From: Escherichia coli
Lineage (GTDB): Bacteria; Pseudomonadota; Gammaproteobacteria; Enterobacterales; Enterobacteriaceae
Direction: 5' to 3' (one strand)
DNA: 64,000 nucleotides
NCBI RefSeq assembly: GCF_003334335.1
Contig: NZ_QOWQ01000005.1
In this document: in pieces, positions 7,301 to 24,419 of the stretch
Layout of the letters: every line of letters starts with the position of its first letter
How positions within the stretch are numbered: the first letter of the stretch is position 1
Made by a program: the position numbers and the translations under genes
Notes under the pieces: generated by a model
What the model was told of the DNA's origin: nothing
The model's input: the letters and a program-made list of their open reading frames with translations, nothing else
Databases searched by the model: none

Positions 7301-8361
7301 TCCTTCAACTGTGGAATATGTGCCACACCACTGCGCATAATCCACTTTCTTAAAGCCGGTGCGGTCAGGCATCGGCTTTTTACTATCTTGCCGAAGAGTT
7401 TTAAACGCAGTTTGCGGGTGGCGCGCCAGTAAGCGGTATTGAGCTTCTCTGGCTGCTTCAGTAACACCGAACGCAGAATGTCTGTGCTATCCAGCGCATA
7501 GCTAATCCCCTCCAGCGAGCTGGCGCTGATAAATCCCGCCGCTTCACCAATCAGAAAGGCGTTGTCCTTACCGCAGACAAAATCCTGCCAGCGCGAGGGA
7601 AACAGCACCGTGCATTTTTCGCTTTTCACCGTCTTACCAAACTGGAACTGAAAGGCGCTCATTTTCTCTTTCAGCGTCGTGAAACGCGTCTGACCGTCTT
7701 TCATTGGATAGGCACCGCCAAAGATAAAATAACCGTCTTTGCTGATACTCCATGAATAACAGTTAGTTATCGAATTATCAAAGATGCAGGAGTAGAACGG
7801 CACCGGATGTTTCTCCGCGAACCACTGCTGGATAGCGACATATTTACGGATTTGATGATCCGGGTAGAGATGTCGCCGCACCATCGAGTTTGCGCCATCG
7901 GCACCGACCAGATAGCGGGCGGTAATATGTTGCTCCCAGCCGTCTGCACGAAAAATGACATGCCATTTATCATCCTCACGCCAGATTTTTCGGCACAGGC
8001 TGTCGTGATAAACCTCAACGCTGGCGGGGATCAGCGATTTCATCCACAAGTCGAAAGCATGGCGATTAATATTGATATAGCTTCGCTGGTAGTTACGCGT
8101 GAGCGATGCGGCGACGTCGACGGTTTTGACGCTGAAAATCTGCGGATTAGCGATCACATCGACAGGAAGCGTCAGCCCATCGCGAATAAAAGATCGCTGC
8201 GCGTCCGGTGCCAGCAGACCGCCGCAGGGTTTGCTGAAACCTTCAGTACCACACTGGTGCTTTTTATCCAGCGCGATCACCTGCATTTTGCCTGCTAACT
8301 TTCGTGCCAACGCCGATCCTGCCGGGCCGAGGCCAATAATCGCCACGTCGAAATGTTCCAT
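7297..8361 (-). CDS. cbrA: FAD-binding oxidoreductase-like protein CbrA (colicin E2 tolerance)
   Basis: N-terminal dinucleotide-binding motif [14 protein letters not shown]; 354 aa from [10 protein letters not shown]. Confidence 0.85.
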
Positions 8362-8425
8362 CTTTTCACTCACATTCATCACGATGGCAAAAGACTATTG
8401 TCTGAAAGTGAAGTCCTTGTGAAGT

Positions 8426-9676
8426 ATGATGGCGGGACCCGTTTTGTATCAGGACCGCGCCATGAAACAGATAACCTTTGCTCCCCGTAATCACCTGCTC
8501 ACCAATACCAATACCTGGACGCCCGACAGCCAGTGGCTGGTATTTGACGTGCGTCCTTCTGGCGCGTCGTTTACCGGCGAGACCATTGAGCGTGTGAATA
8601 TCCATACCGGCGAGGTCGAGGTTATCTATCGCGCGTCACAGGGCGCACACGTCGGCGTGGTGACCGTTCATCCGAAGTCAGAGAAATATGTTTTCATCCA
8701 CGGCCCGGAAAATCCTGATGAAACATGGCATTACGACTTCCATCATCGGCGCGGAGTGATTGTTGAAGGCGGCAAGATGAGTAACCTTGATGCGATGGAT
8801 ATTACCGCGCCGTATACGCCAGGAGTGCTGCGCGGCGGCAGCCATGTGCATGTCTTTAGCCCGAACGGTGAAAGGGTGAGCTTTACCTATAACGACCATG
8901 TAATGCATGAACTCGATCCGGCGCTGGATTTGCGAAACGTCGGTGTTGCTGCGCCGTTTGGCCCGGTCAACGTACAAAAGCAGCATCCGCGTGAATACAG
9001 CGGTAGCCACTGGTGCGTGCTGGTGAGCAAAACCACGCCCACGCCACAGCCTGGCAGTGATGAAATCAATCGTGCTTATGAAGAAGGATGGGTAGGAAAT
9101 CACGCGCTGGCATTTATTGGCGACACACTTTCGCCAAAGGGCGAGAAAGTGCCGGAGCTGTTTATCGTTGAGTTACCGCAAGATGAAGCTGGCTGGAAAG
9201 CGGCAGGTGATGCGCCGTTAAGCGGAACGGAAACAACCCTGCCCGCGCCACCGCGTGGCGTCGTGCAGCGACGTTTAACCTTTACCCACCATCGGGCTTA
9301 TCCGGGGTTAGTCAACGTCCCGCGCCACTGGGTGCGCTGTAATCCGCAGGGTACACAAATCGCGTTTTTAATGCGAGATGATAACGGCATTGTGCAACTG
9401 TGGCTTATCTCGCCACAGGGCGGCGAGCCGCGCCAGTTAACCCATAACAAAACGGATATTCAGTCTGCATTTAACTGGCATCCGTCAGGAGAATGGTTGG
9501 GCTTTGTGCTGGATAATCGAATTGCTTGTGCCCATGCGCAAAGCGGCGAGGTTGAGTATTTAACCGAACACCACGCCAATTCACCTTCTGCGGACGCCGT
9601 GGTCTTCTCGCCGGATGGTCAGTGGCTGGCGTGGATGGAAGGCGGCCAGCTGTGGATCACCGAAACTGATCGCTAA
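8426..9676 (+). CDS. yidR: DUF3748 beta-propeller-like protein YidR
   Basis: 416 aa ORF; synteny. Confidence 0.8.
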   Translation: MMAGPVLYQDRAMKQITFAPRNHLLTNTNTWTPDSQWLVFDVRPSGASFTGETIERVNIHTGEVEVIYRASQGAHVGVVTVHPKSEKYVFIHGPENPDETWHYDFHHRRGVIVEGGKMSNLDAMDITAPYTPGVLRGGSHVHVFSPNGERVSFTYNDHVMHELDPALDLRNVGVAAPFGPVNVQKQHPREYSGSHWCVLVSKTTPTPQPGSDEINRAYEEGWVGNHALAFIGDTLSPKGEKVPELFIVELPQDEAGWKAAGDAPLSGTETTLPAPPRGVVQRRLTFTHHRAYPGLVNVPRHWVRCNPQGTQIAFLMRDDNGIVQLWLISPQGGEPRQLTHNKTDIQSAFNWHPSGEWLGFVLDNRIACAHAQSGEVEYLTEHHANSPSADAVVFSPDGQWLAWMEGGQLWITETDR

Positions 9677-14134: not shown

Positions 14135-17455
<3,321 letters not shown>

Positions 17456-17621
17456 TTTAATATCCCTCCGGCGAATTATGCTCACAACCTGAACTTAACA
17501 GAAAACAATCCGTTCAGGGATACGACGTTTGTATTTTAAGAATCTGACTGCCTGACCCGACGCATTTTACCTCTCCCTATATTCATGCGTCCGGGACATA
17601 AACATAAATAAGGGCTATGAG

Positions 17622-19337
17622 ATGAATTCGTTACAAATCTTGAGTTTTGTCGGTTTTACGCTGCTGGTGGCGGTGATCACCTGGTGGAAGGTCCGCAAAA
17701 CAGATACCGGATCGCAACAAGGCTATTTTCTTGCCGGACGTTCACTAAAAGCGCCGGTTATTGCCGCTTCGTTAATGCTAACCAACCTTTCCACGGAACA
17801 ACTGGTCGGCCTTTCCGGGCAGGCCTACAAAAGCGGCATGTCGGTGATGGGCTGGGAAGTGACTTCAGCGGTGACGCTGATCTTCCTCGCGCTAATCTTT
17901 TTACCGCGCTATCTGAAGCGCGGCATTGCCACCATCCCCGATTTTCTGGAGGAACGTTATGATAAAACGACGCGTATTATCATCGACTTCTGCTTCCTAA
18001 TTGCCACCGGCGTCTGCTTTCTGCCGATTGTTCTCTACTCCGGCGCGTTGGCGCTCAACAGCCTGTTTCACGTCGGGGAATCGCTACAGATTTCTCACGG
18101 TGCGGCTATCTGGCTACTGGTAATTTTGCTTGGTCTGGCGGGAATTTTGTATGCGGTGATCGGCGGACTGCGCGCAATGGCAGTGGCGGACTCCATCAAC
18201 GGTATTGGGCTGGTTATCGGCGGGTTGATGGTGCCGGTATTTGGCCTGATCGCGATGGGCAAGGGCAGCTTTATGCAGGGCATTGAGCAACTCACCACCG
18301 TTCACGCCGAGAAATTAAACTCAATCGGTGGCCCGACCGATCCCTTGCCGATTGGCGCGGCATTTACCGGTTTGATTCTGGTGAACACCTTTTACTGGTG
18401 TACAAATCAGGGCATCGTGCAACGCACGCTGGCGTCAAAAAGCCTGGCGGAAGGGCAAAAGGGGGCGCTGTTAACGGCGGTGCTGAAAATGCTCGACCCG
18501 CTGGTACTGGTGCTGCCAGGGTTGATTGCGTTTCATCTGTATCAGGATTTACCGAAAGCCGACATGGCCTACCCGACGCTGGTCAATAACGTTCTGCCAG
18601 TGCCAATGGTGGGTTTCTTCGGCGCGGTGTTATTTGGTGCGGTGATCAGTACCTTCAACGGCTTTCTGAATAGCGCCAGTACGTTATTCAGTATGGGTAT
18701 TTACCGTCGCATCATTAACCAGAATGCCGAGCCGCAGCAGCTGGTCACCGTCGGGCGCAAATTTGGTTTCTTTATCGCTATCGTTTCGGTGCTGGTCGCG
18801 CCGTGGATCGCCAACGCGCCGCAGGGGCTGTATAGCTGGATGAAACAGCTCAACGGCATTTACAACGTGCCGCTGGTTACCATCATCATTATGGGCTTTT
18901 TCTTCCCGCGCATCCCGGCGCTGGCGGCAAAAGTAGCGATGGGGATTGGCATAATCAGCTACATCACCATCAACTATCTGGTGAAGTTCGACTTCCATTT
19001 CCTCTATGTGCTGGCCTGTACGTTCTGCATCAACGTGGTCGTGATGCTGGTGATCGGTTTTATCAAACCGCGCGCCACGCCGTTCACCTTCAAAGATGCG
19101 TTTGCGGTGGACATGAAACCGTGGAAAAACGTCAAGATCGCGTCAATTGGCATCCTGTTCGCGATGATTGGCGTCTATGCCGGGCTGGCTGAATTCGGCG
19201 GCTACGGTACGCGCTGGTTAGCGATGATCAGTTATTTCATTGCCGCCGTAGTGATTGTCTACCTGATTTTTGACAGCTGGCGGCATCGTCACGACCCAGC
19301 CGTAACCTTTACTCCCGACGGGAAGGATAGCCTATGA
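17622..19337 (+). CDS. yidK: Sodium:solute symporter family transporter YidK
   Basis: 571 aa polytopic SSS-type protein; precedes sulfatase gene. Confidence 0.9.
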   Translation: MNSLQILSFVGFTLLVAVITWWKVRKTDTGSQQGYFLAGRSLKAPVIAASLMLTNLSTEQLVGLSGQAYKSGMSVMGWEVTSAVTLIFLALIFLPRYLKRGIATIPDFLEERYDKTTRIIIDFCFLIATGVCFLPIVLYSGALALNSLFHVGESLQISHGAAIWLLVILLGLAGILYAVIGGLRAMAVADSINGIGLVIGGLMVPVFGLIAMGKGSFMQGIEQLTTVHAEKLNSIGGPTDPLPIGAAFTGLILVNTFYWCTNQGIVQRTLASKSLAEGQKGALLTAVLKMLDPLVLVLPGLIAFHLYQDLPKADMAYPTLVNNVLPVPMVGFFGAVLFGAVISTFNGFLNSASTLFSMGIYRRIINQNAEPQQLVTVGRKFGFFIAIVSVLVAPWIANAPQGLYSWMKQLNGIYNVPLVTIIIMGFFFPRIPALAAKVAMGIGIISYITINYLVKFDFHFLYVLACTFCINVVVMLVIGFIKPRATPFTFKDAFAVDMKPWKNVKIASIGILFAMIGVYAGLAEFGGYGTRWLAMISYFIAAVVIVYLIFDSWRHRHDPAVTFTPDGKDSL

Positions 19338-20827
19338 AACGCCCCAATTTTCTGTTCGTCATGACCGATACCCAGGCCACCAATATGGTCGGTTGCTATA
19401 GCGGTAAACCGCTGAATACGCAAAATATTGATAGTCTGGCGGCGGAAGGTATTCGCTTTAATTCCGCCTACACCTGTTCACCGGTTTGTACGCCTGCACG
19501 GGCCGGACTATTTACCGGTATCTACGCTAACCAGTCCGGCCCGTGGACCAACAACGTCGCGCCAGGCAAAAACATCTCCACTATGGGGCGCTACTTTAAG
19601 GATGCCGGCTATCACACCTGTTACATCGGCAAATGGCATCTCGACGGTCATGACTATTTCGGCACTGGCGAGTGTCCGCCGGAGTGGGACGCTGATTACT
19701 GGTTCGATGGGGCGAACTATCTTAGCGAACTGACGGAAAAAGAGATTAGCCTGTGGCGCAATGGCCTAAACAGCGTCGAAGATTTACAGGCGAACCATAT
19801 CGACGAAACCTTCACCTGGGCGCATCGTATCAGCAATCGGGCGGTGGATTTTCTGCAACAGCCTGCGCGCGCAGACGAGCCTTTCCTGATGGTGGTTTCG
19901 TATGATGAGCCGCATCACCCGTTCACCTGTCCGGTGGAGTATTTAGAGAAATACGCTGATTTTTACTACGAGCTGGGCGAGAAAGCACAGGATGACCTGG
20001 CTAACAAACCGGAACATCACCGCTTATGGGCGCAGGCGATGCCATCGCCAGTCGGTGATGACGGGCTTTATCACCATCCGCTCTATTTTGCCTGTAATGA
20101 CTTTGTTGATGACCAAATCGGACGGGTCATCAATGCCTTAACGCCAGAGCAACGTGAAAATACGTGGGTTATTTATACCTCCGATCACGGCGAAATGATG
20201 GGCGCACATAAGCTGATCAGTAAAGGGGCGGCGATGTATGACGACATCACCCGCATTCCGCTGATCATCCGTTCGCCGCAAGGGGAGCGGCGACAGGTCG
20301 ATACGCCAGTCAGTCATATCGATTTACTGCCGACAATGATGGCGCTGGCAGATATTGAAAAACCAGAGATTCTGCCGGGGGAAAATATCCTTGCCGTGAA
20401 AGAGCCACGCGGCGTGATGGTGGAATTTAACCGCTACGAGATTGAGCATGACAGCTTTGGCGGTTTTATTCCGGTGCGTTGCTGGGTGACGGATGACTTT
20501 AAACTGGTACTCAACCTCTTCACCAGTGATGAACTTTACGATCGCCGTAATGACCCAAATGAAATGCATAACCTGATCGATGATATCCGTTTTGCAGACG
20601 TTCGCAGCAAAATGCATGACGCCTTATTGGATTACATGGACAAAATTCGCGATCCGTTCCGCAGTTACCAATGGAGTCTGCGTCCGTGGCGTAAAGATGC
20701 ACGGCCGCGCTGGATGGGGGCGTTTCGTCCACGTCCACAAGATGGCTATTCGCCAGTTGTACGCGACTATGACACCGGCCTACCGACACAAGGGGTGAAG
20801 GTGGAGGAGAAAAAACAGAAGTTCTGA
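19334..20827 (+). CDS. yidJ: Cys/Ser-type sulfatase YidJ
   Basis: 497 aa; sulfatase signature CSPVCTPARAGLFTG near the N-terminus. Confidence 0.9.
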   Translation: MKRPNFLFVMTDTQATNMVGCYSGKPLNTQNIDSLAAEGIRFNSAYTCSPVCTPARAGLFTGIYANQSGPWTNNVAPGKNISTMGRYFKDAGYHTCYIGKWHLDGHDYFGTGECPPEWDADYWFDGANYLSELTEKEISLWRNGLNSVEDLQANHIDETFTWAHRISNRAVDFLQQPARADEPFLMVVSYDEPHHPFTCPVEYLEKYADFYYELGEKAQDDLANKPEHHRLWAQAMPSPVGDDGLYHHPLYFACNDFVDDQIGRVINALTPEQRENTWVIYTSDHGEMMGAHKLISKGAAMYDDITRIPLIIRSPQGERRQVDTPVSHIDLLPTMMALADIEKPEILPGENILAVKEPRGVMVEFNRYEIEHDSFGGFIPVRCWVTDDFKLVLNLFTSDELYDRRNDPNEMHNLIDDIRFADVRSKMHDALLDYMDKIRDPFRSYQWSLRPWRKDARPRWMGAFRPRPQDGYSPVVRDYDTGLPTQGVKVEEKKQKF

Positions 20828-20831
20828 CGAT

Positions 20832-20863
20832 AATGCCCGCTGATGATCACCCGGCGGGCATTA
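20832..20863. terminator. Hairpin terminator between yidJ and yidI
   Basis: aatgcccgc ... gcgggcatt inverted repeat. Confidence 0.5.
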
Positions 20864-20873
20864 TTCAGGCTGC

Positions 20874-21323
20874 TTAAACCAGTGAACCGCCGGTCAGGAA
20901 GGAAAAGATAAGGAATATCAGCAAAATGCTGCACACGATGCCGATACCAAAAAGCAAGGTATGGAAAGCCAGCGTCCCGCCGCCAAAAACCAGCGCGCCG
21001 CGAATGCCCCAGCGATTTTCCTTACGCATACCGCCAATAAATGCGCAAAGTAGCGCAGCAATGGCCAGTGCGATACCGCTTTGATTGAGGATTTTATCGA
21101 CATCTACGTCCTCTTTTTTCTCCACGGTGGTAATTTTTTCGCCTTTTATTCCGGCGAGAAGACCTCTTTTAATTTCAGCCGTTTTGTCCGCCACGATGCT
21201 TTCAAACGTTGGCGGTGGTGCGGAGAAAGGGCCGAATGAAAAGTGGATAATCCCCATCATTAAAGCGATGGCACCGAACAGCATGCCCAATGAACTGATT
21301 TTATTTTGAGCTATGATACCCAT
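20874..21323 (-). CDS. yidI: Inner membrane protein YidI
   Basis: ORF 20874..21431; start at MGIIAQNKISS (149 aa); hydrophobic. Confidence 0.8.
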   Translation of the reverse strand: MGIIAQNKISSLGMLFGAIALMMGIIHFSFGPFSAPPPTFESIVADKTAEIKRGLLAGIKGEKITTVEKKEDVDVDKILNQSGIALAIAALLCAFIGGMRKENRWGIRGALVFGGGTLAFHTLLFGIGIVCSILLIFLIFSFLTGGSLV

Positions 21324-21430
21324 CTGACCTCCTTGTAGCGGATGGCAAAAGCATATCAGGAAACGGGCGGACGAAATTCTTAAAAAAACCGCTAAAGGTA
21401 GAGCGTTAGTGAAATTGCAAAGGAGCAACA

Positions 21431-21778
21431 ATGAAAATTTCCCGCCTCGGAGAAGCGCCTGATTACCGCTTCTCGCTGGCTAATGAGCGTACTTTTCTGG
21501 CGTGGATCCGTACTGCACTAGGATTTCTGGCGGCGGGGGTTGGGCTTGATCAACTTGCGCCAGATTTCGCCACGCCCGTCATTCGCGAACTGCTGGCGTT
21601 GTTGTTGTGTCTGTTTTCCGGCGGGTTAGCGATGTATGGCTACTTGCGCTGGTTACGCAATGAAAAAGCGATGCGTCTGAAAGAGGACCTGCCCTACACC
21701 AACAGCTTATTAATCATTAGCTTAATATTGATGGTCGTGGCGGTGATCGTTATGGGACTGGTGTTGTATGCCGGATAG
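21431..21778 (+). CDS. yidH: DUF202 inner membrane protein YidH
   Basis: 115 aa membrane protein. Confidence 0.85.
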   Translation: MKISRLGEAPDYRFSLANERTFLAWIRTALGFLAAGVGLDQLAPDFATPVIRELLALLLCLFSGGLAMYGYLRWLRNEKAMRLKEDLPYTNSLLIISLILMVVAVIVMGLVLYAG

Positions 21779-22130
21779 CCGCAAAGCCAGACGCATTGCC
21801 GACCCAGGACTGCAGCCGGAGCGCACATCACTGGCGTGGTTTCGTACCATGCTGGGCTACGGCGCGTTGATGGCGTTGGCTATCAAACACAACTGGCACC
21901 AGGCGGGCATGTTATTCTGGATTTCGATTGGCATTCTCGCCATCGTGGCGCTGATCCTCTGGCACTACACCCGTAATCGCAATTTAATGGATGTCACGAA
22001 TAGCGATTTTTCCCAATTTCACGTAGTCCGTGACAAATTTTTGATCTCCCTCGCGGTGTTATCTCTCGCAATACTGTTTGCTGTAACGCATATACATCAA
22101 CTTATCGTATTTATTGAGAGAGTCGCATGA
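21768..22130 (+). CDS. yidG: DUF202 inner membrane protein YidG
   Basis: 120 aa; overlaps yidH end. Confidence 0.85.
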   Translation: MPDSRKARRIADPGLQPERTSLAWFRTMLGYGALMALAIKHNWHQAGMLFWISIGILAIVALILWHYTRNRNLMDVTNSDFSQFHVVRDKFLISLAVLSLAILFAVTHIHQLIVFIERVA

Positions 22131-22624
22131 CAGGAAGTCAGGTCATTGATGCTGAAGAGGACAGGCATAAACTGGTTGTAGAGTACAAGGATGCTCTGCA
22201 ACCTGCCGATTTTTATCACAATTTCAAACAGCGGGGCATCCGCTCCGTACAGCTCATTCCCTATCTTGAATTTGATGACCGGGGCGATCTGACGGCCGCT
22301 TCGGTGACAGCAGAGCTGTGGGGGAAATTTTTAATTGCCCTGTTCGAGTGTTGGGTGCGGGCAGATATCAGTCGTATCTCGATTGAGCTTTTTGACGCCA
22401 CCTTACAAAAATGGTGTGGCAGCGAAAACCCGCAACCGCGCTGTGACTGCCAGGCGTGCGACTGGCATCGCCTGTGCCCGCACGCTCGGCAGGAGACGCC
22501 AGACAGCGTGCTTTGTGCGGGCTATCAGGCGTTTTATTCTTACTCCGCACCGCATATGCGGGTGATGCGTGATCTGATAAAGCAGCATCGTTCTCCCATG
22601 GAGCTGATGACGATGCTGCGGTGA
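22127..22624 (+). CDS. yidF: YidF, stand-alone SPASM-like Cys-rich domain (sulfatase-maturase-like C-terminal half)
   Basis: 165 aa with cysteine cluster CDCQACDWHRLCP plus additional Cys; no CxxxCxxC radical-SAM motif. Confidence 0.85.
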   Translation: MTGSQVIDAEEDRHKLVVEYKDALQPADFYHNFKQRGIRSVQLIPYLEFDDRGDLTAASVTAELWGKFLIALFECWVRADISRISIELFDATLQKWCGSENPQPRCDCQACDWHRLCPHARQETPDSVLCAGYQAFYSYSAPHMRVMRDLIKQHRSPMELMTMLR

Positions 22625-22631
22625 CGTGCGC

Positions 22632-23816
22632 TTAAACGGGCTGCCCCTGATGCGACATCCGCGTCGCCAGCGGCAGCCAGCACAGCACGATCAACAATCC
22701 CATTAAGGTCATCAACAACCCCAGGCTGCCCTGACCGGTTTGCGGCAACATCGCAGAGAGCGACGCCAGCACGCCGGAACCAATGTTTTGCAGACCGCCG
22801 ACCAGCGCGCCAGCCGTGCCCGCCAGGAAGGGGAACGGCTCCATCGCGCCGCTGGTCGCCAGCGGAAACAGCATCCCGGCACCGAAAAAGAACAGCGCGG
22901 CGGGAACGAGCAGCGTCCAGACATTCATCACGCCAAACCAGTCGGGGATCCACATCAGCAAGCCAGCCAGCAGGCAGCAGATAACCGACTGCCACATTAA
23001 CGTGGAGAAGCGTTTATTGGGACGTCCGGCAAACCATGCGCCAAAAAACGCTGCCGGAATCGGCAGAATAAACAAAATACTGACCGTCATACTGCTCAGC
23101 CCTAACACCGCGCCCATCAGCACGCCGGAGCAGGCTTCAAAGGCGGCAATCCCGGCCAGACCGCCAATCAGCATCAGCAAATAACAGTTAAAACCGCTGT
23201 TACCGAAAAGCGTTTTATAACTGGTAAGCAGGCGCGTGCGCGGTGCATCGACCGGACGCGTTTCCGGCATCCAGCGGGCCATACTGAAGGTCACACCAGC
23301 ACAAAGAACCAACAAAAAGAGATAACAGGCGCGCCAGTTCCACATCGTATCCAGCAGACCGCCGATTAGCGGTGCGAGCAACGGACTGACGAGAATCCCC
23401 ATGTTTAACAGGCTGTTAGCATGGCGCAACTGTGTCCGTTCATATAAATCTCGCGGTAAAGTACGCGCCATTACGCCGCCAACGCCGGTGCCCATCCCCT
23501 GCATCGCGCTGGCGGCAATCAACACCGTCAAACTGGAGGTCGTGACCGCGACCAGCGTTGCCAGCATAAAAATGGACATTCCGACGAGGATCACCGGTCG
23601 GCGGCCCACGCGGTCGGAAATCGGGCCATAAAACAGCTGTGAGACACCGTAAGTCAGCAGATAAGCGCCCATTACGCTCTGCACCGCCCCTTCACGGACG
23701 TTGAGATCGCGCGCCATATCGGCAATAGCTGGAATATAAATGGTTTGCGCCATCTGACCGACGGCCACGAGTAATACCAACATCAATAACAAATTGACGT
23801 TTCTTTGCCTTTTCAT
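22632..23816 (-). CDS. emrD: MFS multidrug efflux pump EmrD
   Basis: 394 aa from MKRQRNVNLL; 12-TM MFS. Confidence 0.9.
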   Translation of the reverse strand: MKRQRNVNLLLMLVLLVAVGQMAQTIYIPAIADMARDLNVREGAVQSVMGAYLLTYGVSQLFYGPISDRVGRRPVILVGMSIFMLATLVAVTTSSLTVLIAASAMQGMGTGVGGVMARTLPRDLYERTQLRHANSLLNMGILVSPLLAPLIGGLLDTMWNWRACYLFLLVLCAGVTFSMARWMPETRPVDAPRTRLLTSYKTLFGNSGFNCYLLMLIGGLAGIAAFEACSGVLMGAVLGLSSMTVSILFILPIPAAFFGAWFAGRPNKRFSTLMWQSVICCLLAGLLMWIPDWFGVMNVWTLLVPAALFFFGAGMLFPLATSGAMEPFPFLAGTAGALVGGLQNIGSGVLASLSAMLPQTGQGSLGLLMTLMGLLIVLCWLPLATRMSHQGQPV

Positions 23817-23990
23817 TATCACGGATGCTTTTATAAAAATAATTAGAATAAGTCACTACGCATTCCCATAAATGCGGGAGAGGAATCTATCACATTGATG
23901 AATGTTAGCCAGATATACGCCAGGAATGGGGAATTGTTTAGCGGCAGAATATGTAAACAAAAGCGGCAATAAATGTTGCCGGGAGAGATG

Positions 23991-24028
23991 GTAGGGCGGA
24001 TAAGATGCGTCAGCATCGCATCCGACAC
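23991..24028. repeat. REP-like palindromic element
   Basis: ggtagggcggataagatgcgtcagcatcgcatccgacac. Confidence 0.4.
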
Positions 24029-24044
24029 CAACCCGCACGCTAAA

Positions 24045-24077
24045 TATAAAAGGGGAGCGGTTTCCCGCTCCCCTTTG
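24045..24077 (-). terminator. Rho-independent terminator of tisAB
   Basis: ggggagcgg/ccgctcccc stem; on the minus strand it is followed by a U-rich tract directly downstream of tisB. Confidence 0.5.
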
Positions 24078-24095
24078 GTGCGACTTGAATCTGAA

Positions 24096-24185
24096 TTACT
24101 TCAGGTATTTCAGAACAGCATCAAGCAGTTGCAGTGCTGCAACAATGAGTTTGAGGATAAGAATGGCGATATCCACCAGGTTCAT
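24096..24185 (-). CDS. tisB: Type I toxin TisB (29 aa membrane peptide)
   Basis: Minus-strand ORF MNLVDIAILILKLIVAALQLLDAVLKYLK, matching recalled TisB; below the 60-aa cutoff of the ORF track. Confidence 0.9.
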   Translation of the reverse strand: MNLVDIAILILKLIVAALQLLDAVLKYLK

Positions 24186-24295
24186 ACGCGTCTCCTGTGG
24201 TTCAGGAGCACTGCCAGCTGACGTACCTTTCCGCTGCCTGTTGCCAGCTGTTGTGCACGCGGTATCTCAAGGAGAAACGTTGTGCTTGTTGACAT
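24182..24295 (-). CDS. tisA: tisA leader ORF (37 codons; reported to be poorly or not translated)
   Basis: MSTSTTFLLEIPRAQQLATGSGKVRQLAVLLNHRRRV; stop overlaps tisB start (ATGA). Confidence 0.5.
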   Translation of the reverse strand: MSTSTTFLLEIPRAQQLATGSGKVRQLAVLLNHRRRV

Positions 24296-24419
24296 AACAC
24301 AGTGTGCTCACGCGGGGTTAAGGCGCTGACGGCACCACCCGTTTCAGCCAGGACTTAGTGCGCCGGGTAACGATGCGGCCCCCGCATAACACATTGCGTA
24401 CAGTGATATTATAGAAGTT

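Follow-up and report, generated by a model that had tools for sequence, protein, structure and literature searches.

YidF of Escherichia coli, a probable reductive end product of an anaerobic sulfatase-maturating enzyme with a selected Aux II module

We analyzed a 64,000-nucleotide stretch of an Escherichia coli genome (contig NZ_QOWQ01000005.1 of assembly GCF_003334335.1, hereafter the window) with a focus on yidF, a 165-codon gene (22127..22624, + strand) that follows two genes for DUF202 membrane proteins, yidH and yidG, and lies near the Cys-type sulfatase gene yidJ. We propose, with a probability of about 70%, that YidF is the reductive end product of a locus-specific anaerobic sulfatase-maturating enzyme (anSME), which lost its radical S-adenosylmethionine (SAM) core and its first auxiliary iron-sulfur cluster site (Aux I), and whose retained module with the second site (Aux II) is selected, probably for another function together with YidH and YidG. 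As judged from sequence comparisons, YidF descends from a maturase, its radical-SAM site, SAM-barrel half and Aux I are gone, and the remainder is under purifying selection in the absence of YidJ. Assignment of the gene as a reduced anSME derivative drew on its open reading frame (ORF), a match to the NCBIfam model TIGR03942, a match to the PDB, synteny, and the ratio of non-synonymous to synonymous substitution rates (dN/dS, or omega).

YidF contains the stretch ...RCDCQACDWHRLCP... and has cysteines at positions 75, 97, 106, 108, 111, 117, and 130. The radical-SAM motif CxxxCxxC was looked for across the 165 residues and was not found. TIGR03942 matched YidF in two separate stretches (E=5e-21, 75.1 bits, cutoff 349.45), and a phmmer search against PDB sequences matched only anSMEcpe of Clostridium perfringens (4K36/4K37), also in two pieces, YidF 27-95 pairing with anSMEcpe 175-246 and YidF 105-152 with anSMEcpe 314-370. 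The protein likewise aligned to residues 173-270 and 351-402 of E. coli AslB. An AlphaFold model, built on a 41-sequence alignment, reached a predicted local distance difference test score (pLDDT) of 80.7 and a predicted template modelling score (pTM) of 0.79, with low confidence for residues 1-9 and the loop 101-130. When this model was compared with the PDB using Foldseek, eight anSMEcpe chains were the only significant matches (E about 1e-4, TMq 0.57-0.59). We consider YidF clearly homologous to anSME by descent and by modelled fold, despite falling under every family threshold. Neither Pfam SPASM (PF13186) nor Radical_SAM matched YidF or any of 17 short homologues, and in a 19-sequence alignment SPASM matched only the two longer sequences; Pfam is blind to YidF because nearly all of both Pfam domains have been deleted. 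A previous reading of the letters alone (the sequence-only reading) had described YidF as the SPASM half of an anaerobic sulfatase maturase without its radical-SAM core. Every one of its sequence statements was correct (165 residues, a cysteine cluster, no CxxxCxxC), and the derivation of YidF from an AslB/anSME-type enzyme without the radical-SAM motif held; the term SPASM half did not, as nearly all of both domains is gone. Of the checks it had proposed, the profile search returned TIGR03942 and no Pfam domain, and structure prediction led significantly to anSMEcpe only.

A protein search returned YidF-like short proteins of 162-178 aa from Escherichia, Citrobacter, Superficieibacter, Leclercia, Silvania, and Klebsiella-like genomes, almost all beginning with MTGC. 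On an Atlantibacter-like contig, the order AraC regulator, symporter, sulfatase, DUF202, DUF202 was followed by a gene reading MTGCHVMAKPASSRCNLRCRYCFY..., which extends over about 374 codons and is interrupted only by an 'nn' assembly gap. Scanning one genome per species, we found full-length anSMEs (369-374 aa) in about 35 enterobacterial species, distributed over Atlantibacter, Pluralibacter, Kluyvera, several Citrobacter, Trabulsiella, Kosakonia, Yokenella, Buttiauxella, Dryocola, and one Leclercia. In all of them, as located by tblastn with the E. coli neighbours, the full-length gene sits directly 3' of yidH-yidG; yidL-yidK-yidJ lie upstream in 26 of the 38 full-length loci, and emrD is often downstream. 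These enzymes start with MTGC[QH]VMAKPASSRCNLxCRYCFY and score 458-484 bits with TIGR03942 (above the cutoff of 349), and Pfam recognized Radical_SAM (12-173) and SPASM (254-312) in a full-length orthologue. Because the syntenic full-length orthologues pass TIGR03942 and carry both Pfam domains, the yidF position was evidently held ancestrally by a true maturase, a 370-aa radical-SAM/SPASM enzyme coupled to yidH-yidG. The sequence-only reading had pointed to a comparison of orthologous loci, and a full-length maturase was indeed found at the exact position, so the orthologues are not of uniformly short length.

The same E. coli genome also encodes a full-length paralogue, AslB (411 aa, all three cluster sites), which is named anaerobic sulfatase maturase by the NCBI annotation pipeline PGAP and is 46% identical over its whole length to the full-length YidF orthologue of Citrobacter werkmanii. 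This agrees with the earlier suggestion that YidJ would depend on a maturase encoded elsewhere. In the stretch examined around aslB, no linked DUF202 genes were found. Vibrio litoralis (locus L041, 6980-8949) and Marinomonas flavescens (locus L037, 6986-9040) have the order anSME-yidH-yidG, unlike enterobacteria; the association of an anSME with the DUF202 pair would predate the Enterobacteriaceae, because it is kept there in another order. The V. litoralis locus is adjoined by genes for an AraC regulator, a symporter, and a YidJ-like sulfatase (75% identity). We also observed a typical enterobacterial yidL-yidK-yidJ-yidH-yidG-anSME-emrD locus in CACSKA010000004.1, titled 'Chryseobacterium sp. 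18061'. Four of the six neighbour proteins there are 84-87% identical to those of E. coli (70-71% for YidG and YidL), and the assembly is probably mislabelled or contaminated. Other sulfatase genes occur at some loci: L012 and L019 have unrelated sulfatases upstream (22-24% identity to YidJ), and in Silvania H4N4 (L090, 1062-5909) genes for a 494-aa sulfatase, phosphotransferase system (PTS) IIB and EIIC components, and an arylsulfotransferase adjoin yidH-yidG and a short yidF. With these three loci, the neighbourhood seems to swap sulfatase-related cassettes.

Aligned to the full-length enzyme of C. werkmanii, E. coli YidF corresponds to residues 1-7, 150-239, 299-317, and 322-370, and what separates the two proteins are in-frame internal deletions of about 8-149 (including C15/C19/C22 of CxxxCxxC), about 240-298, and 318-321. 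The first of these took the CxxxCxxC site and most of the SAM-binding barrel, the second three Aux I cysteines, and the third the X3C cysteine. Since the ancestral start and the first seven residues remain, the core was lost by in-frame internal deletion rather than by 5' truncation. On the + strand, codons 1-7 (MTGSQVI, 22127..22147) are the ancestral N-terminus (MTGC[QH]VM...), with the first deletion junction after residue 7. Residues 8-97 (22148..22417) are the remnant of the C-terminal radical-SAM barrel, equivalent to residues 150-239 of the full-length enzyme and about 175-246 of anSMEcpe, and are modelled as strand-helix-strand-helix-helix with pLDDT 86-96. Residues 98-135 (22418..22531) hold the second junction, at which about 59 residues are gone, and then the Aux II motif C108-x2-C111-x5-C117...C130. 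Residues 136-165 (22532..22621) form the C-terminal helices (...SAPHMRVMRDLIKQHRSPMELMTMLR), the best conserved part in reduced as well as full-length forms. Of SPASM (254-312 in the full-length enzyme) only about 299-312 is retained. The remainder thus consists of the last beta/alpha barrel units, the Aux II cysteine motif, and the C-terminal helices. A tblastn search of the whole window with two full-length orthologues found no other remnant of the core and no other anSME, so the lost segments have not moved to a nearby place. We also considered a split enzyme whose N-terminal half has a gene of its own, and rejected it: nothing in the window points to one, and the intermediates described below show decay of the N core, not separation.

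In anSMEcpe, the Aux I cluster is bound by C255, C261, C276, and C330, and the Aux II cluster by C317, C320, C326, and C348 (PMC5682303, PMC5715301). The Aux II site lies at the surface and is presumed to be where electrons leave the enzyme (PMC5715301). In a HMMER alignment with 4K36, YidF C108, C111, C117, and C130 (codons 22448-22450, 22457-22459, 22475-22477, and 22514-22516) align to C317, C320, C326, and C348, which makes the Aux II set complete, whereas deletion has removed each of the four Aux I ligands. Across 41 sequences, short and full-length, C108, C111, and C130 never vary. At the Aux I-type cysteine that follows the motif, Escherichia has a deletion, the Leclercia short form P0099 has Ser, and Silvania has Gly, yet all three keep the Aux II set; this is the pattern expected of selection specifically for the Aux II site. 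C106 (22442-22444) is the first cysteine of the 'CDC' in the sequence-only reading. Arg occupies this position in E. marmotae, the E. coli cluster representative, and two further E. coli strains (L092 and L093), and Lys in E. albertii; the cysteine is a substitution of the K-12 lineage and does not belong to the conserved set. The Aux II ligand set is conserved, but its loop is modelled at low confidence, and YidF is a putative small stand-alone [4Fe-4S] protein.

To assess selection, dN/dS was estimated by the Nei-Gojobori method on codon alignments; the values are approximate, and no omega is claimed for the deep comparisons (E. coli with full-length Citrobacter, and a 310-aa intermediate with all references), which are saturated at synonymous sites. 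The 165-codon ORF is intact in E. coli, E. albertii, and E. marmotae, and yidF dN/dS among these species was 0.15-0.17 (dS 0.53-0.71; p=2e-12 to 4e-10 versus neutrality). Within E. coli, omega was 0.20-0.30. Two Citrobacter short forms gave 0.14 (dS 1.4) and Leclercia-type short forms 0.27-0.41. In Escherichia pairs, the ratio was 0.01-0.03 for yidH, 0.07-0.12 for yidG, 0.14-0.20 for yidI, 0.03 for emrD, and 0.03-0.05 for ilvB, and full-length orthologues had 0.02-0.13 over the same columns as YidF. All four regions of YidF had dN/dS below 1, with 0.13-0.15 for residues 8-97. The C-terminal tail was the most constrained (0.01-0.10), E. coli and E. albertii differing there by one non-synonymous and 12 synonymous changes. 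The constraint acts on the protein and not on the DNA, because yidF dS equals that of the neighbouring genes, and 29 residues are invariant over 19 sequences that average 40% column identity. The gene was found at ≥95% identity in 5421 of 5426 complete E. coli genomes, and 39 of 40 copies sampled across the ranking were annotated as intact. Both yidK and yidJ are gone from E. albertii and E. marmotae, which still carry yidI-yidH-yidG-yidF. Because these species keep a constrained yidF without yidJ, selection on YidF is independent of YidJ. With its intact frame and non-neutral evolution, YidF is evidently not a neutral pseudogene.

Intermediates were recovered by an exhaustive HMMER search of cluster representatives combined with cluster look-ups. 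A 363-aa Kosakonia form has lost CxxxCxxC through a 5-residue deletion, and in Kluyvera forms of 311/317 aa, as in a 310-aa form, the motif is destroyed and the Aux I segment deleted. The Shimwellia protein (315 aa) is another reduced intermediate, and reduction has gone further in [Enterobacter] lignolyticus (249 aa), in a 220-aa Kluyvera protein, and in a 213-aa form. The minimal forms span 154-178 aa and include those of Klebsiella aerogenes (162 aa, 197 cluster members), Pseudenterobacter (156 aa), and Enterobacter sp. (154 aa). Both the 311- and 310-aa forms lie directly 3' of yidH-yidG, and their loci lack yidJKL. What survives of the N core in each intermediate is less like the full-length enzymes than the retained modules are. 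Indeed, the N core is the best conserved part of full-length enzymes, and this order is inverted in the reduced forms. For the N core of the 311-aa form, comparison with full-length Kluyvera genes gave a dN of 0.26 and an omega of 0.21-0.28, versus 0.03-0.14 for both measures in full-length controls, and the omega of its retained modules (0.07-0.11) was the same as in controls. Two near-full-length proteins, both encoded from 7001 onward of their loci, were also noted: that of Enterobacteriaceae RIT691 (L032) reads CNLNSRCFY and has lost CxxxCxxC, which looks like early-stage inactivation, and that of Kosakonia pseudosacchari (L033) has an altered N-terminal motif, SSCCTLHCRYCCY.

Reduction occurred more than once. 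The deletion junctions differ among lineages. Full-length Leclercia and the Leclercia-type short forms have in common a 5-residue gap at 193-197 as well as the C-terminal tail, and a neighbour-joining tree joins them with a bootstrap value of 81; the Escherichia and Citrobacter short forms have no such gap and group elsewhere. The 311-aa Kluyvera and 363-aa Kosakonia forms are each nearest to full-length genes of their own genus. From the differing junctions, the Leclercia gap, tail, and tree, and these own-genus affinities, we infer at least two independent origins, and probably four or more. Frameshifted full-length copies were found in Pluralibacter gergoviae and Kluyvera genomosp. 3. The sulfatase gene yidJ accompanies 2 of 10 reduced-form loci versus 26 of 38 full-length loci (Fisher p=0.01, a statistic that ignores phylogeny).

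A further observation concerns the downstream side of reduced loci. In Citrobacter, Leclercia, Klebsiella-like, Silvania, and one further genome, the reduced yidF is convergent with dsdA (D-serine ammonia-lyase, 787 bits; for example at 7544-8866 of locus L083), after which come GntP-permease and LysR genes resembling dsdX and dsdC. A table entry in PMC12363166 lists YidF overexpression in E. coli as raising D-serine resistance. The adjacency of dsdA and this resistance may be a coincidence.

As the intermediates show, decay began with destruction of the radical-SAM motif, after which the N core drifted and was then deleted, always in frame. A C-terminal module that needs translation from a coupled start would let only in-frame deletions survive. 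With no radical-SAM cluster, SAM site, or Aux I left, YidF would be incapable of forming formylglycine by radical chemistry, and YidJ, if it is matured, would rely on AslB, YdeM, or an uncharacterised aerobic Cys-type system. Most likely, the retained module would still hold a single [4Fe-4S] cluster in its Aux II site, exposed at the surface. It would also most likely work with YidH and YidG in a second role of this anSME clade that is independent of maturase activity, such as that of a docking or electron-transfer subunit. The link to YidH and YidG is suggested because the coupled start is conserved, the trio persists without the sulfatase gene, yidH and yidG are strongly constrained there, and an anSME adjoins the pair in Vibrio and Marinomonas. 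A bolder version, which we regard as speculative and rather unlikely, is that the DUF202-linked anSME clade has a second, non-radical function in its last about 150 residues, and that mini-YidF with YidH and YidG forms an unrecognised membrane-associated Fe-S module. Enterobacteria without need for a maturase would then have repeatedly pared the enzyme down to this module. In its boldest form, if true, the module would be part of the third Cys-type sulfatase maturation system of E. coli.

Other explanations have to be weighed against a selected Aux II module. YidF could be a dead pseudogene fragment with an ORF just not yet interrupted, YidJ using other maturases. The catalytic core and Aux I are gone, the score is far under the TIGR03942 cutoff, the short forms sit on long branches, and reduced forms are commoner where yidJKL are missing; decay has also struck many lineages, with frameshifts in P. 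gergoviae, Kluyvera genomosp. 3, and one E. coli strain. However, a dead fragment would hardly show a dN/dS of 0.14-0.17 in two genera (dS 0.5-1.4; p=2e-12 to 4e-10), a C-terminal tail nearly invariant despite many synonymous changes, or an ORF intact in three Escherichia species and in almost all sampled E. coli copies of a gene present in nearly every genome. Moreover, independent reductions kept the same module, at an omega like that of full-length enzymes while the N core relaxed. We therefore find a dead fragment highly improbable. The sequence-only reading had set a decayed maturase remnant and a stand-alone Fe-S protein as alternatives; YidF fits the first, being a decay product, and the two are not exclusive, since the remnant is also under purifying selection. 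A protein that is translated only so that reading of the yidF frame protects the yidH-yidG mRNA or prevents polarity, its product being irrelevant, is by far the least credible explanation. It would fit the conservation of the 4-base yidG/yidF overlap in all loci and the fact that all surviving deletions are in frame, but it would keep the frame open and not the amino acids, at odds with the invariant residues and a dN/dS well below 1.

It is also conceivable that YidF still matures YidJ or other Cys-type sulfatases, as a non-radical 'oxidative' maturase or as an accessory subunit of AslB or YdeM, and is perhaps the missing third system. A maturation system of E. coli independent of both AslB and YdeM, the third of its kind, was reportedly described by Benjdia and colleagues in 2007, and an older K-12 annotation presumably listed YidF as a putative Cys-type oxidative YidJ-maturating enzyme. 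Furthermore, yidF still adjoins a Cys-type sulfatase cassette in E. coli and Superficieibacter, and the part retained is the surface-exposed Aux II site, the presumed exit for electrons (PMC5715301). We judge a maturation factor improbable all the same, though a shade less so than a dead fragment: it would have to work without a radical-SAM cluster, half of the SAM barrel, and the substrate-adjacent Aux I, selection maintains yidF at loci without yidJ (in E. albertii, E. marmotae, Citrobacter, Leclercia, and Klebsiella-like genomes), and motif-intact full-length copies stay wherever a maturase seems needed. Somewhat less unlikely, though still doubtful, is a functional remnant without a cluster, which would act in the cytoplasm as a structural or regulatory partner of YidH/YidG or of some other component and whose cysteines would serve zinc binding or folding. 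In its favour, the strongest constraint falls on the barrel remnant and C-terminal helices rather than the cysteine loop, the loop is modelled at low confidence, the Citrobacter forms carry Tyr at the third ligand position, and there is a weak likeness to Cys4 zinc-ribbon proteins (L40e, E 0.3-0.7), one short homologue matching a Zn-ribbon Pfam family. Such a protein would not by itself account for the canonical CX2CX5C...C spacing kept in most lineages, the invariance of C108, C111, and C130 over the 41 sequences, or the loss of the Aux I cysteine in Escherichia, the Leclercia short form, and Silvania.

Several of our own results weigh against YidF as a selected, cluster-binding module that arose by repeated reduction. 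The dN/dS of yidF is several-fold above that of yidH, emrD, and ilvB and about twice that of full-length orthologues, and because it exceeds both, constraint on YidF is relaxed. The Aux II region evolves fastest at the protein level (dN 0.17-0.23), and nowhere is the model less certain than in its loop (pLDDT 57-61). C117 is kept everywhere except in the Citrobacter short forms, which have Tyr at this third Aux II position, and its equivalence to C326 rather than C330 rests on the kept CX2CX5C spacing, MAFFT placing the 4-residue gap on the other side. One of the 40 sampled E. coli copies is frameshifted. The neighbour-joining tree is moderately supported overall; bootstrap values are low (58-64) where it unites the short forms of Escherichia, Citrobacter, and Klebsiella-like genomes, which may reflect long-branch attraction among fast-evolving sequences. 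Since reduced forms were found as called proteins, the apparent lack of out-of-frame deletions is in part a matter of ascertainment.

The yidL-yidF stretch of the window is identical in sequence to that of E. coli K-12 MG1655, with the gene order yidL (-), yidK, yidJ, yidI (-), yidH, yidG, yidF, and then emrD (22632-23822), convergent with yidF. The sequence-only reading had placed a transporter of the solute:sodium symporter (SSS) family and an AraC regulator alongside, and a Cys-type sulfatase 1.3 kb away, and all were confirmed: yidK (17622..19337, +) is a solute:sodium symporter gene (NF007790, 857 bits), yidL (16562..17485, -; ORF and profile match) encodes an AraC-family regulator and is divergent from yidKJ, and yidJ (19334..20827, +) ends 1.3 kb upstream of yidF. 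The yidK and yidJ genes overlap by four bases and are predicted to be co-transcribed. YidJ has no signal peptide and is assigned as a cytoplasmic Cys-type sulfatase from its motif and from PF00884 (Pfam Sulfatase) in orthologues. Its signature C52-T-P-A-R (codons 19487-19501) lies inside CSPVCTPARAG, with C52 as the predicted formylglycine site. Between yidJ and yidH, yidI (20874..21323, -) encodes a small inner-membrane protein. It is missing in one class of E. coli strains; the locus matches with 82% coverage of 19334-22624 are without yidI, and in loci L091 and L092 yidH comes directly after yidJ. Coverage of the whole region is below 80% in about 300 of 5421 E. coli genomes.

The DUF202 genes yidH (21431..21778, +), the first of the trio, and yidG (21768..22130, +; PF02656 in orthologues) overlap by 11 bases, and the yidG stop and yidF start share ATGA (22127-22130), an overlap of four bases that also occurs in related loci. 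On account of these two overlaps, yidH-yidG-yidF is read as a translationally coupled unit. The ATGA overlap with yidG also bears out the earlier remark that there is no room upstream of yidF for a radical-SAM core. When 20800-22800 was scanned for promoters and terminators, no sequence resembling a sigma-70 promoter turned up, nor did a convincing terminator 3' of yidF. Just upstream of yidL (15751-16565), a gene resembling those for GH4 6-phospho-alpha-glucosidases is split into ORFs of 212 and 70 aa; RefSeq marks the MG1655 copy as frameshifted, and it appears to be the glvG pseudogene. In related loci, the GH4 gene is intact (440 aa) and accompanied by a PTS EIIC-EIIB gene. Between emrD and ivbL-ilvBN, the region 23843-24300 carries the tisB toxin gene, a small-ORF region, and ysdE, which are ordinary K-12 content unrelated to yidF.

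Existing annotation already hints that YidF resembles anSME: PGAP names YidF 'radical SAM protein', and source names in the K. aerogenes cluster are 'regulator' and 'Arylsulfatase regulator (Fe-S oxidoreductase)'. The PGAP name is misleading, as YidF appears to have lost that machinery and, going by its sequence, could not be the maturase of YidJ. In a full-text literature search, we found no paper on YidF as a truncated maturase, its syntenic full-length ancestor, or its deletion map, and none on Aux II-only retention, the recurrent graded series, or purifying selection on YidF. YidF is an uncharacterised product of an E. coli core gene, and being selected, it is not to be dismissed as a pseudogene. 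The series from full-length to motif-dead, Aux I-deleted, and 154-178-aa forms documents, with unusual clarity, how domains were lost step by step in nature and points to an Aux II-containing module that is valuable on its own. It yields testable hypotheses for yidF, yidG, and yidH and for the poorly understood role of Aux II in SPASM enzymes, and it narrows the search for the maturation route of Cys-type sulfatases in E. coli.

Among known systems, YidF is to be compared with the anSMEs themselves (AslB, AtsB, ChuR, anSMEcpe; TIGR03942; PDB 4K36-4K39), of which it has kept the final barrel units, all four ligands of Aux II, and the helices at the C-terminus; in E. coli it also lies beside a Cys-type sulfatase. 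It differs from them in having no CxxxCxxC, in lacking most of the SAM barrel and all four Aux I ligands (75 bits versus a cutoff of 349), and in persisting also in genomes with no sulfatase at the locus. Of its full-length E. coli paralogues AslB and YdeM, AslB has all three cluster sites, whereas YidF has neither the radical-SAM nor the Aux I site. Twitch-domain enzymes (BtrN, MoaA) also have a shortened SPASM domain with a single auxiliary cluster (PMC5715301), which in YidF is presumed. In Twitch proteins, however, the Aux I half is kept and CX2CX5CX3C is absent, whereas YidF is the mirror image, with CX2CX5C...C (Aux II) kept and the Aux I half gone; moreover, Twitch proteins retain a full radical-SAM core and YidF has none. 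Finally, YidF resembles pseudoenzymes and domain-loss derivatives, a conceptual class rather than a sequence family, in which catalysis has likewise been lost and a sub-domain is under purifying selection.

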